64,000 nucleotides of DNA from Escherichia coli (lineage in GTDB: Bacteria; Pseudomonadota; Gammaproteobacteria; Enterobacterales; Enterobacteriaceae): NCBI RefSeq assembly GCF_024223415.1, contig NZ_CP100501.1; one strand, written 5' to 3'. Below the pieces are notes generated by a model. The model did no database searches and had not been told where the DNA came from. It saw only the letters and a list, made by a program, of their open reading frames with translations. Below, piece after piece: positions 58,720 through 61,253 of the stretch; the stretch's first letter is position 1; each line of letters opens with the position of its first letter. Both the position numbers and the translations under genes were made by a program.

Positions 58720-59157
58720 CTAATTCATCCAGAGGATGACGTGATCGGGGATCACTGACGGAAGTGTGATGGAAAGCGCTCTGCCGGCAGTGTCCAGCAG
58801 TCGGCCGTTTTCCACCCTGCCGAGCAGAGCAGAGTCATGACTCTGTTCCCTGAGGGCGGCCATCAGGCCCGGGGTTTCTGTGGCCCAGACAAAAACATGT
58901 TGCTGGCTGATGATATGACTGACGGTATCCGTCCCGGGAAGCCCGAGCTGAGCGGATGTCAGCCGACCGCCGGCAGTCCGTCGTTCCGGATGCAGGTACA
59001 GGTAATCATTGATGGCGTTCATATAACGAATGAACGTTGCAGCCTGTTGTGAGGTTTCTGCTGCCTGGTGACGGTGTTCGCTGCGGGAGAGCTGACTGCT
59101 GAACCAGAAATTGCCTGTGGTCGTGATGACCATGATGAACACGATGAACCAGCCCAT
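58720..59157 (-). CDS. pilM: PilM-like protein
   Basis: 145-aa product with N-terminal TM anchor; synteny. Confidence 0.55.
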   Translation of the reverse strand: MGWFIVFIMVITTTGNFWFSSQLSRSEHRHQAAETSQQAATFIRYMNAINDYLYLHPERRTAGGRLTSAQLGLPGTDTVSHIISQQHVFVWATETPGLMAALREQSHDSALLGRVENGRLLDTAGRALSITLPSVIPDHVILWMN

Positions 59158-59161
59158 AAGG

Positions 59162-60232
59162 TTATTCCTGCGGACGGTCTGTCACCCGCAGCAGACATTG
59201 TGCTGTACTGGTCCGGGCATACAGCGGTTTTTCTGCCGGGGTGTAGAGTGCGAAGAGCTGCTCCAGCGCCTGGCGGAAACTGCCGGTGAAAACCAGAGGG
59301 GCATCGATGCTGTAGTTGACGGGCGTTTCCCAGCGCAGCGTCCAGGTGCCGTGGGGACATTTTTCGGATGATGTCCAGCGGGCCAGTCCGTCTTTCAGGG
59401 TGGTCCCCTTTTCCATTTTCCACTGCCGTGGCGGTATGACCTTCTGCGGTGGTGGCACTACTGGTTTCGTGGCCACCGGGGCTGGCGTGGTTGTTCTGCT
59501 CTCTGGTGTTCCGGATGTCCCGGTGGTGGTCTGAGCCCGGGAAACGCTGACGGCAGGTGTCCCATGTGTCGGGCCTGCCGGCGTTGCGGTGCTGCCCCTG
59601 AACGGATTACGCGGTGTATCTGCTGCTTTCTGTGAACCCTGCGGTGCCGTGACGTCGACCGGCGGTGTTGCAGTGGTCGTGACAGTCAGTATTTTCCGGC
59701 TCCAGTCCATATGTCCGTAAAGCTGCTGGCCGGCCAGCAGCGCATTCAGTGCCCGGTGCCACTGGTCATTAACGGACCAGACGGGGAGGCGTTTGTTCAG
59801 TGCCGGTGTGGCGGCATTCTGCTGGCGGAACTGCCAGCCGGTTGGCAGCAGCTGGCGTATCCAGTCACTGACGGAGCGCTGACGTGCTTCACGTAAATAA
59901 ACGACGGATGAGGGACCGGGCTTACCGGTCATAACCAGTGCGGGCAGCTGTGTGGCCTGAAGGAGTGGGCGGGGAGGCAGTGCGGTACTCTGGCTGCTGA
60001 CAGTGGTTGAGGGTGTCGCCGTTGTTGTCGGACGGGGCGGTGTCACAGGGCGGGTCACCGGTGGCGGAAGCAGACGTTTTTGCGTATGGGCGATAATGGC
60101 AGCGCTTTCGCGAATTTGTCCGTCGACGAACACCAGAGCCGGAGGCGTGGTGTCAGGAACAGGCGTGGAATTAAATGCCGTACAGCCGCTGAGTAATGAC
60201 GGCAGAAGGAGTGTAAGTGATTTCTTTTGCAT
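59162..60232 (-). CDS. pilL: PilL lipoprotein with Pro/Thr-rich linker
   Basis: Lipobox LLSGC; 356 aa; first gene of the pilL-pilV block. Confidence 0.65.
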   Translation of the reverse strand: MQKKSLTLLLPSLLSGCTAFNSTPVPDTTPPALVFVDGQIRESAAIIAHTQKRLLPPPVTRPVTPPRPTTTATPSTTVSSQSTALPPRPLLQATQLPALVMTGKPGPSSVVYLREARQRSVSDWIRQLLPTGWQFRQQNAATPALNKRLPVWSVNDQWHRALNALLAGQQLYGHMDWSRKILTVTTTATPPVDVTAPQGSQKAADTPRNPFRGSTATPAGPTHGTPAVSVSRAQTTTGTSGTPESRTTTPAPVATKPVVPPPQKVIPPRQWKMEKGTTLKDGLARWTSSEKCPHGTWTLRWETPVNYSIDAPLVFTGSFRQALEQLFALYTPAEKPLYARTSTAQCLLRVTDRPQE

Positions 60233-60353
60233 AGAATATAATCCGGTATATTACGGGTTACGGTATAAGACAGGTGGCGGGTAACTGGCCTTCAGATGAA
60301 TATCATTTCATCGGGTTATTGATGATGAACCTTAAAAATCACAGAGGTGATGC

Positions 60354-60749
60354 ATGATAAAGAAGATGTGGCGTTATTTACGGCAAATTGATAAGTATGA
60401 ATTGCTGCAGCAGGTGATTTCAGTACATGAAGTGGAACTGCTCAGGAAAATGATGACAGATTCATTATTAGGGTGCTCAGTAGGATATGTGTTTTCGAAA
60501 ATACTGAAGATATCCTTTCTGCGTTTTATTCAGTCTGAGGGGGGATGGGATATTATTACTTACTTTTTGTGGATGCTGGGAATACTTATTGTCATGGCCG
60601 CGCTGTTTATCTGGATGTGCGCCGCTGTATGCTATGAGCTTCGGATGTATAAAATAAAAACAGGAAGGGAGAACGATATATTATTCTGGGTGTGGATTCT
60701 TCTTTTTGATGTCGCGGTTGTATTTTCGCTGGGTAATGTTATCTGGTGA
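60354..60749 (+). CDS. hypothetical membrane protein (AT-rich module, plus strand)
   Basis: 131-aa ORF with GAGG Shine-Dalgarno; short soluble N-terminus plus TM helices; convergent with the next ORF. Confidence 0.4.
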   Translation: MIKKMWRYLRQIDKYELLQQVISVHEVELLRKMMTDSLLGCSVGYVFSKILKISFLRFIQSEGGWDIITYFLWMLGILIVMAALFIWMCAAVCYELRMYKIKTGRENDILFWVWILLFDVAVVFSLGNVIW

Positions 60750-61181
60750 TTATGGGTTCAGTGACATATGGAAAAAGATAAGTGCGAACATTGATACTGA
60801 AGAATAATATATCCAGGAATAGAAAAACATGAATTTCGGAGATGGTTTCTTCTGTCTCCTGTTTTTCAGGGGAGTCTGTGGGTCAAATGTTATCAGCGTC
60901 ATTAAAGGATACCCTTTCATAAGAATAAAAATATAGACGCATAAATGAGCGTAAAGAGGTAACCTGTCCTGCCAGAACAGAATCATCATGATGACGGCAA
61001 GATGAAATGTCGTTACATTGATATAATAAAACCAGCTGTATTTACGCAGATACTGTTGGATATTCACGCTGTCAGCATGCGGTTCTGGTGAACAATTTAT
61101 GCAAAAACAGAAGAAAGAAATGATGATGAACACGGTCAGAGTGACCGGTAATACAGTCACAAGCAGAAAGAGTATGGACAT
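60750..61181 (-). CDS. hypothetical polytopic membrane protein (AT-rich module)
   Basis: 143-aa strongly hydrophobic product; GGAG upstream; 3-prime end touches the preceding ORF. Confidence 0.4.
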   Translation of the reverse strand: MSILFLLVTVLPVTLTVFIIISFFCFCINCSPEPHADSVNIQQYLRKYSWFYYINVTTFHLAVIMMILFWQDRLPLYAHLCVYIFILMKGYPLMTLITFDPQTPLKNRRQKKPSPKFMFFYSWIYYSSVSMFALIFFHMSLNP

Positions 61182-61253
61182 AAAAATATCTCCGTCAGGA
61201 TAGTGTGATTATTCCTTTATGGTTCCATAACCCGGCGTAGCTCCGTCGACTGG

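Follow-up and report, generated by a model that had tools for sequence, protein, structure and literature searches.

A convergent pair of predicted orphan membrane protein genes in the variable pilI-pilL interval of IncK2/Z plasmids

The DNA analyzed here is a stretch of 64,000 nucleotides (nt) from Escherichia coli contig NZ_CP100501.1, called the window throughout, and it represents an IncK2/Z-type plasmid of the I-complex. Between pilI and pilL, in the first part of its thin-pilus (pil) operon, lie two convergent open reading frames (ORFs), ORF131 and ORF143, which are the subject of this report. ORF131 occupies positions 60354 to 60749 of the plus strand (ATG at 60354, TGA at 60747 to 60749), encodes 131 amino acids (aa), and is annotated as a "hypothetical protein" by the Prokaryotic Genome Annotation Pipeline (PGAP). 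ORF143 occupies positions 60750 to 61181 of the minus strand (ATG at 61181 to 61179, stop codon at 60752 to 60750), encodes 143 aa, and is not annotated in RefSeq. The stop codons of the two genes abut at 60749/60750, and the sequence bears out the coordinates of an original prediction, made from the letters alone, in which two convergent frames ended on these adjacent bases. The ribosome-binding sites which that prediction considered plausible are also present, as Shine-Dalgarno sequences were found at 60343 to 60349 on the plus strand (AGAGGTG, 4 nt before the ATG of ORF131) and at 61190 to 61193 on the minus strand (GGAG, 8 nt 5′ of the ATG of ORF143). The predicted strand switch holds for ORF131 only, as ORF143 is co-oriented with the pil operon. 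The order of genes on the minus strand is traB (NusG-like), traC, pilI, ORF143, pilL, pilM, pilN, and onwards, with ORF131 on the plus strand between ORF143 and pilL. The left flank, pilL (59162 to 60232, minus strand), encodes a 356-aa lipoprotein of the TcpQ family and is the first conserved structural gene of the operon, as assigned from the ORF list and from the PGAP product in identical and sister plasmids. The right flank, pilI (61254 to 61496, minus strand), encodes an 80-aa protein of family PF10623 and is separated from ORF143 by 72 nt on the operon strand. Both flanking genes are thus those originally proposed.

The module is AT rich, and the composition of its genes is in part a consequence of what they encode. 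The GC content in 200-bp windows was 0.37 to 0.41 over positions 60200 to 61199, compared with 0.59 to 0.645 in pilL, which agrees with the marked AT richness first described for the segment. The AT-rich tract is wider than had been claimed, however, as it extends from the start of pilL (60233) to approximately position 61750 and takes in pilI and the pilI-traC spacer. In ORF131 and ORF143, T accounts for 44 to 46% of second codon positions, GC content at that position is 0.30, and GC content at the third codon position (GC3) is 0.47, compared with a backbone median of 0.59. The low GC content of the module is therefore partly due to the T-rich second codon positions of genes for hydrophobic proteins. 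When the 1,021-bp segment from 60233 to 61253 was randomized 5,000 times under a first-order Markov model, the longest ATG-initiated ORF reached at least 131 aa in 1% of the randomized segments, and a pair of at least 143 and 131 aa appeared in none of the 5,000. Moreover, both ORFs have diverged protein relatives in which motifs and reading frame are preserved. We conclude that ORF131 and ORF143 are, to judge from their frames and their relatives, real genes under weak constraint.

The original prediction had raised the prospect that the segment occurs elsewhere as a unit, and it does: near-identical copies were found in approximately 98 plasmids, always in the same context. Among the best 30 of 200 matching plasmids in PLSDB, the 1,021-bp segment was 99.8 to 100% identical, all but one of the 30 were predicted to be conjugative, and the examples examined were typed as IncK2/Z, MOBP, and MPF_I. 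In complete E. coli genomes, every match to the segment was on a plasmid, at a median of one place per genome. A pilL gene at least 90% identical to that of the window was present in 462 PLSDB plasmids, of which only 148 carried any relative of ORF131 or ORF143.

Comparison of these plasmids indicated that the interval between pilI and pilL exists in alternative forms. Type A (approximately 98 plasmids) is the arrangement of the window, namely, pilI, ORF143, convergent ORF131, and pilL. Type B (approximately 50 plasmids, including pO104_H7 and pSTEC2018_607-b) encodes a 295-aa protein of two tandem ORF143-like modules, convergent with a 141-aa relative of ORF131 that is antisense to the operon. 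In 48 records, the match to the B pair extended over 80% or more of the query, and both of its genes were annotated in all 13 of the records listed. The two types are alike in that they contain homologous families in the same slot, with convergent, touching 3′ ends and the same conserved leader towards pilL. They differ in that their proteins are only 25 to 37% identical, their DNA is not similar, the partner in type B is a tandem double module, and the genes overlap by 8 to 11 nt in type B but abut in type A. Homology between the window and type-B DNA breaks off exactly at 60333/60334, 20 bp 5′ of the ATG of ORF131, and at 60749, at the stop codon of ORF143. A different pair, or none, is found in plasmids whose pilL gene is approximately 94% identical to that of the window, and the ratio of nonsynonymous to synonymous substitution rates (dN/dS) was 0.3 to 0.56 for the small membrane protein genes and 0.13 to 0.37 for pilL. 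ORF143 itself varies among type-B plasmids: some (L009 to L012) retain an intact copy beside pilI, giving three modules in a row, others have only a remnant (L003), and L004 and L005 have none. The antisense gene of L009 has an N-terminal truncation, and its gene for the 295-aa protein is intact.

The commonest form, type 0, consists of pilI, a gene for a 111-aa protein, and pilL, and its junction was contiguous in 245 PLSDB plasmids. Of the type-B antisense gene, type 0 retains the first 33 codons, and it is therefore a deletion derivative that has lost 1.8 kb; in addition, approximately 177 complete-genome records keep only the first 104 nt or so of that gene, as expected of a type-0 junction. 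Type 0′ arose independently, by another deletion of the B block, the left end of which is at the antisense start codon and the right end of which is 14 nt from that of type 0. The IncK1 plasmid pCT and plasmid pMS7163B are both type 0 and, like at least 245 PLSDB plasmids with a pilL gene approximately 94% identical, lack both families, and one report mentions a thin-pilus function of pCT in liquid mating (PMC5350095). That two independent events deleted the B block from most relatives, among them the conjugative plasmids pCT and pMS7163B, indicates that the pair is neither a core component of pilus assembly nor an addiction module that cannot be lost. Beyond these types, the Citrobacter plasmids pCTEL-1 and pUMH14_1 have other, unrelated genes upstream of pilL, and IncI2 plasmids lack pilI, pilJ, and pilK (PMC9045228). 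The presence of unrelated genes in the slot across lineages indicates that the region upstream of pilL is hypervariable in type IVb conjugative pilus operons. On these comparisons, the pair is accessory, being apparently not needed by relatives that conjugate, and the history of the slot appears to be one of allelic replacement and recurrent deletion of a long-standing feature of the lineage rather than of insertion into an R64-like operon. We conclude that the segment is very probably type A, the form taken in IncK2/Z plasmids by a hypervariable slot between pilI and pilL in the IncB/O/K/Z group, and that it holds a cognate, lineage-restricted pair of orphan inner-membrane protein genes.

Other differences were observed in and around the slot. 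A cysteine-rich soluble protein of 111 to 122 aa (WP_001335624.1 type) is encoded in the pilI-pilL interval of types 0 and B (L013, 4798 to 5133; L015, 40986 to 41321; L003, 2637 to 3005) and is absent from the window; neither the 111-aa form of this protein nor the products of the Citrobacter genes upstream of pilL are related to R64 PilK. In the type-B plasmid L004 (NZ_CP024887.1, 2094 to 2794), a 380-bp insertion between traC and pilI, relative to the window, creates an ORF for a 169-aa protein with two helices, and only approximately the first 27 codons of pilI are left, as a fusion on the upstream side of the 295-aa gene. In many sister plasmids, traC and pilI are separated by a YqiJ/NfeD-like gene and a flotillin (SPFH) gene (L001, 7345 to 9680; L003, 1 to 2219; L009, 1309 to 3650; L013, 5572 to 7913; L016, 1 to 642), and an SPFH/NfeD pair also lies upstream of the pil genes in a Citrobacter plasmid; at the same place, the window has only 354 bp of noncoding AT-rich DNA (61497 to 61850). 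On the other side of the slot, the pilM-pilL region of the window (58800 to 60199) differs by approximately 5% from its nearest type-A relatives, the module (60233 to 61399) has only 0 to 1 mismatches, and the pilL gene has no PLSDB match above 97.2%. The alignment points to a recombination mosaic adjoining the module at 58800 to 60199.

Both gene products are predicted to be small membrane proteins, in line with the hydrophobic character first ascribed to them. Hydropathy and AlphaFold2 secondary structure predicted a basic, presumably cytoplasmic N-terminal helix of approximately 36 aa and two to three membrane helices for ORF131 and four membrane helices with no soluble domain for ORF143; the two families showed no homology to each other. 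ORF131, which we define as allele A of its family, has 34 to 37% identity with the 141-aa protein encoded antisense in type B; 41 positions are invariant and include the motifs LLR..MTDSLL.CSVG.VF and EGG. Synonymous divergence between the two alleles is saturated (dS of approximately 1.7), and dN/dS was 0.33, with a value of approximately 1.0 in one comparison of antisense genes. When 1.84 billion representative proteins were searched exhaustively with a profile, just two full-length clusters of the ORF131 family, plus fragments, were returned. A weak match of ORF131 to FtsX (E = 0.007) was rejected, as it was not reproduced with allele B.

ORF131 has been inactivated repeatedly. The codons for E62, G63, and G64 contain a run of six G residues (G6; 60539 to 60544, plus strand) that is a recurrent site of frameshifts in public assemblies, and the frame is shifted there in variants P0005 and P0009 to P0012; other variants of the junction were also present. 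Phase variation at the G6 run was rejected as a conserved feature, as the codons for the EGG motif in allele B form no homopolymer. Two further losses are deletions, independent of each other and both in type-A plasmids. One of these, of 134 bp, removes the equivalent of window positions 60296 to 60429 and with them the start of ORF131, leaving ORF143 intact (L008; NZ_MG825371.1), and the other, in frame and of 306 bp (window positions approximately 60359 to 60664), leaves a mini-ORF of 29 aa (L022; NZ_CP126939.1). ORF131 was nevertheless full length in 53 of the 60 complete-genome records listed, which were the best 60 of 62 matched. We conclude that ORF131 is not an essential antidote or immunity protein to ORF143, because it is deleted or frameshifted where ORF143 remains intact.

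ORF143 is more uniform. Its length of 432 nt was unchanged in every full-length type-A match listed, it was 100% identical in 43 of the 46 type-A matches listed at 99% identity or higher, and its annotation field read "none" in every type-A record listed (RefSeq/PGAP). Intact variants at 90 to 92% identity also exist (P0020 and P0021). Compared with either half of the 295-aa type-B protein, ORF143 is 25 to 30% identical and has the motif RYL..Y.WF.Y.N in common, and the family was seen only among plasmid proteins of the E. coli group.

Searches for more distant relatives returned nothing for either family. Searches of Pfam, NCBIfam, PADLOC, and PHROGs gave no significant match for ORF131, ORF143, the 295-aa protein, or the 141-aa protein, where significance was set at an E value of 0.001 or lower or a score above the curated cutoff and where only subthreshold noise was seen; in the same databases, neither partner showed homology to toxin, antitoxin, immunity, or defense families, and R64 PilJ and PilK likewise yielded nothing above threshold. 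ORF131 and ORF143 matched no sequence profile from the Protein Data Bank (PDB), and Foldseek comparison of their AlphaFold2 models with the PDB and AFDB50 gave no match below an E value of 1. Neither a word-indexed search nor the exhaustive profile search found anything outside the plasmid lineage, no paralogues of ORF131 or ORF143 were present elsewhere in the window, in R64, or in pCT, and the module proteins had no significant similarity to anything in R64 or pCT, ExcA included. The segment contained no transposase or integrase, no meaningful terminal repeats, and no hallmarks of a mobile element; an 11-nt inverted pair (60312 to 60322 and 61224 to 61234) with 91% complementarity was one of 17 such pairs at chance level and has its left arm inside the conserved leader. 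An insertion sequence, transposon, or integron cassette was ruled out by the lack of a transposase or integrase, by chance-level repeats, and by the constant context. Rfam indicated no RNA family within the module or between 59000 and 63800. The only Rfam matches were at 63838 to 63988, which is the replicon control region, with a repZ pseudoknot at 167 bits (E = 8e-39) and a weaker match to a CopA-like antisense RNA on the opposite strand. No paper discussing ORF131 or ORF143 was found, and published transposon insertion sequencing (TraDIS) data are uninformative for the module because the plasmid concerned, pMS7163B, is type 0 (PMC10286972). We conclude from these searches that ORF131 and ORF143 are, as far as sequence can tell, lineage-restricted orphan families of small membrane proteins.

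Sequence elements that bear on transcription were found on both sides of ORF131. The 120-bp leader that separates pilL from ORF131 is kept in all slot types, and alignments indicated that it is conserved in types A, B, 0, and 0′ from the start of pilL to the cassette breakpoint (60233 to 60333). Within the leader, a lenient scan identified a candidate −10 hexamer at 60237 to 60242 on the plus strand, TATAAT in type A and TAAAAT in types B and 0, which is directed towards ORF131 and overlaps the start of pilL. Downstream, 90 to 120 nt past the stop codon of ORF131 and inside the coding sequence of ORF143, is a terminator-like hairpin on the plus strand (60838 to 60868) of the form GGAGATGG-loop-CTGTCTCC followed by TGTTTTTC. 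The minus strand has no terminator-like site from pilI to pilL, such that transcription could feasibly read through from pilI into pilL by way of ORF143 and the complement of ORF131. Because the NusG-like gene traB lies upstream, ops elements (loading sites for RfaH and NusG paralogues) were also sought, but none was found near the module and matches were at chance level.

The reading that we lean towards is that ORF131 and ORF143 are a lineage-restricted, cognate membrane pair in which expression of ORF131 is opposed to read-through of the pil operon. ORF143 would most simply be translated from the transcript that runs from pilI to pilL, and ORF131 would be transcribed from a start of its own in the 120-bp leader, against the flow of the operon. 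The ORF131 mRNA would then be fully complementary to the read-through transcript that crosses it to reach pilL, and the expression of ORF131 and that of pilL to pilV could be reciprocal, either by transcriptional collision or by formation of an RNA duplex. In the inner membrane, the two proteins may jointly modulate a membrane function associated with the pilus or with mating, a role that would be dispensable and apparently costly; the repeated loss of ORF131, by the 134-bp and 306-bp deletions and by G6 frameshifts, was taken as a sign of cost or dispensability. As a whole, this mechanism of antisense transcription, reciprocal expression, and a joint membrane modulator is put forward tentatively, and we consider it doubtful in all its parts at once.

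Several points weigh against the opposed membrane pair. No expression data were found for the module, a standard promoter scan found no consensus promoter for ORF131, and the hexamer at 60237 to 60242 is only a candidate promoter because it lacks a good −35 element. The pilL gene could have a promoter of its own in the conserved leader, in which case neither read-through nor collision would be needed. The hairpin at 60838 to 60868 is equally kept in L009 and L003, where no antisense gene abuts, and for that reason it is only a possible dedicated terminator of ORF131. The AlphaFold2 models of ORF131 and ORF143 are of low confidence (predicted local distance difference test [pLDDT] of 65 and 49, respectively), and the partnership of the two proteins is one that we infer. 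Moreover, dN/dS values of 0.3 to 0.56 correspond to only weak constraint, and the retention of ORF143 says little about selection because the type-A plasmids are almost clonal. Finally, the location may be just a permissive site and not a functional link to the pilus.

Two alternatives concern the origin of the module. The segment sits where R64 carries pilJ (150 aa) and pilK (196 aa) on the operon strand, as the original prediction had noted, and ORF131 and ORF143 could be diverged orthologues of these genes, given the identical position between pilI and pilL, the small products with N-terminal membrane helices, the AT-rich DNA (GC content of 0.34 to 0.40 in R64), the shared strand of ORF143, and a short QQYL..Y motif common to PilJ and ORF143. 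In profile-profile comparison with hhalign, however, the ORF143 family matched PilJ with a probability of 6.6%, over 17 residues, and PilK with a probability of 0.2%, and a tblastn search of R64 with ORF131, ORF143, the 295-aa protein, and the 141-aa protein returned nothing below an E value of 2; the PilL proteins of the window and R64 are approximately 40% identical. Architecture and orientation differ as well, as PilJ and PilK have one to two helices and a soluble C-terminal domain in place of the four membrane helices of ORF143, and the R64 slot has no convergent gene, with no long antisense ORF annotated or evident opposite the operon. PilK is reportedly required for thin-pilus formation by R64, whereas the module genes are absent from most relatives with the same pilL. 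By these alignments, orthology to pilJ and pilK is largely refuted, and we regard it as extremely improbable. R64 PilJ (L007, 31333 to 31785) gave a weak, subthreshold match to a PADLOC membrane model of the SLATT type, RTasSLATT (E = 0.0024). Alternatively, as first suggested, the module could be foreign DNA, acquired recently as a cassette and blocking the passage of transcription from pilI into pilL, which would account for GC and GC3 values below those of the backbone, for the orientation of ORF131, and for the sharp homology breakpoints. Those breakpoints, together with a different pair or none beside pilL genes that are approximately 94% identical, do support an exchangeable cassette. 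A recent foreign origin fared less well, as no donor sequence was found outside the lineage, no transposase or meaningful terminal repeats are present, R64 pilJ and pilK are equally AT rich, hydrophobic coding contributes to the composition, and the saturated synonymous divergence of the two alleles points to an old arrangement. Moreover, interruption of pilL transcription is unlikely because the minus strand lacks a terminator-like site and IncK2 plasmids mate in liquid culture (PMC6803427). Taken together, recent acquisition with interruption of the operon is very unlikely.

Other alternatives concern what the pair does. The leading specific rival is that ORF131 and the 141-aa protein are membrane-damaging toxins and that ORF143-type modules are a cognate polytopic immunity array, with the two alleles as specificity groups and the extra ORF143 of some type-B plasmids as orphan immunity. 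Consistent with such a system, the convergent pair is kept as a unit in two alleles whose partners have diverged to comparable degrees (25 to 30% and 34 to 37% identity), the partner family expands in tandem to as many as three modules (L009), intact ORF143 lies beside the B pair in L009 to L012, and joint loss of both genes is tolerated. Losses also run in the expected direction, as ORF131 is repeatedly inactivated with ORF143 intact, with no counterexample in the type-A records listed, and as the antisense gene of L009 is truncated with the 295-aa gene intact, but the near clonality of type A makes such asymmetry weak evidence. Immunity genes of pore-forming colicins face the colicin gene, and both these genes and type I toxin-antitoxin loci resemble the module in their convergent genes, touching 3′ ends, expected overlap of transcripts, and one small polytopic inner-membrane partner. 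They differ in that the partners here are both membrane proteins, of 131 to 295 aa, and no colicin, small toxin, antisense RNA family, or family match accompanies them. A type I toxin-antitoxin locus as such was rejected, given proteins of 131 and 143 aa and no Rfam antisense RNA in the module, and ORF131, a multipass protein of 131 aa with no secretion signal, is unlike the small type I toxins of fewer than 60 aa. Were the pil transcript the sole source of ORF143, nothing would oppose a toxic ORF131 while pil is off, and yet another difficulty is that only a decayed remnant of ORF143 survives in L003 and nothing of it in L004 and L005. The original prediction had offered a toxin/immunity pair without deciding its polarity; no homology to toxin, immunity, or defense families supports it, the version in which ORF131 is the essential immunity protein is excluded by its loss beside intact ORF143, and what remains, with ORF131 as toxin and ORF143 as immunity, we judge unlikely.

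A different rival is that the two proteins reduce redundant mating or thin-pilus contact between cells with the same plasmid, in the manner of exclusion or self-recognition proteins. TraS of F, Eex of SXT/R391, and ExcA of IncI plasmids are small, hydrophobic, lineage-specific proteins encoded in transfer regions and fall into deep allelic groups, and they are the models for this reading, by likeness and not by homology. The module fits their pattern, and pattern only, with small hydrophobic proteins, AT-rich genes inside the transfer region, and two deep alleles (34 to 37% identity) between flanks that are approximately 94% identical; moreover, the pair is dispensable for transfer, as exclusion genes are. 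Such plasmids already encode ExcA, however, which is annotated in pMS7163B and R64, the module proteins resemble neither ExcA nor anything else in R64 or pCT, and we know of no precedent for convergent orientation among exclusion genes. An exclusion function is therefore quite unlikely. Equally little credence is given to the proposal that the ORFs are decaying or functionless remnants, held in a permissive spacer prone to recombination only because they are linked to the pil operon. Recurrent deletions and frameshifts, relaxed dN/dS (0.3 to 0.56, and approximately 1.0 in one antisense-gene comparison), orphan status, and absence from most relatives would all follow from decay. Against it, the frame of ORF131 and a 41-residue invariant core survive a dS of approximately 1.7, 53 of the 60 type-A records listed have the pair at full length, and the B pair accounts for 80% or more of the query in 48 records, with both genes annotated in 13 of 13 listed. 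The convergent architecture is likewise kept in both alleles, and both genes have good ribosome-binding sites.

A more speculative possibility, and an unlikely one, is that the slot encodes a hitherto unrecognized polymorphic two-component membrane system, with A and B as at least two specificity alleles, in which an antisense multipass protein (ORF131 or the 141-aa protein) is countered by a tandemly expandable set of cognate four-helix modules (ORF143 or the 295-aa protein). Such a system might be a toxin/immunity device or one for kin discrimination or exclusion among cells that bear the plasmids, and through its convergent layout it would be wired reciprocally to thin-pilus transcription.

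Conjugative type IVb pilus operons are known to be headed by variable accessory genes, and what sets this case apart is the conserved convergent gene and the deep two-allele structure. IncK2, IncB/O, and IncZ plasmids are major carriers of blaCMY-2 and of extended-spectrum β-lactamase (ESBL) genes in poultry and humans, and it is the thin pilus that drives their transfer, both in liquid and in the gut. In these plasmids, the start of the pil operon is a hot spot at which cassettes are exchanged and deletions recur. It contains a well-conserved gene overlooked by RefSeq annotation, ORF143, and a convergent gene, ORF131, that operon transcription must either traverse or compete with. An effect of the pair on pilus expression, membrane stress, or compatibility between cells, should there be one, could account in part for behavioral differences between lineages, such as IncK2 (type A) and IncK1 pCT (type 0), and if the pair does nothing measurable, the slot is an ordinary accessory region. 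Either way, variants A, B, 0, and 0′ provide a useful typing marker of recombination history in the I-complex.

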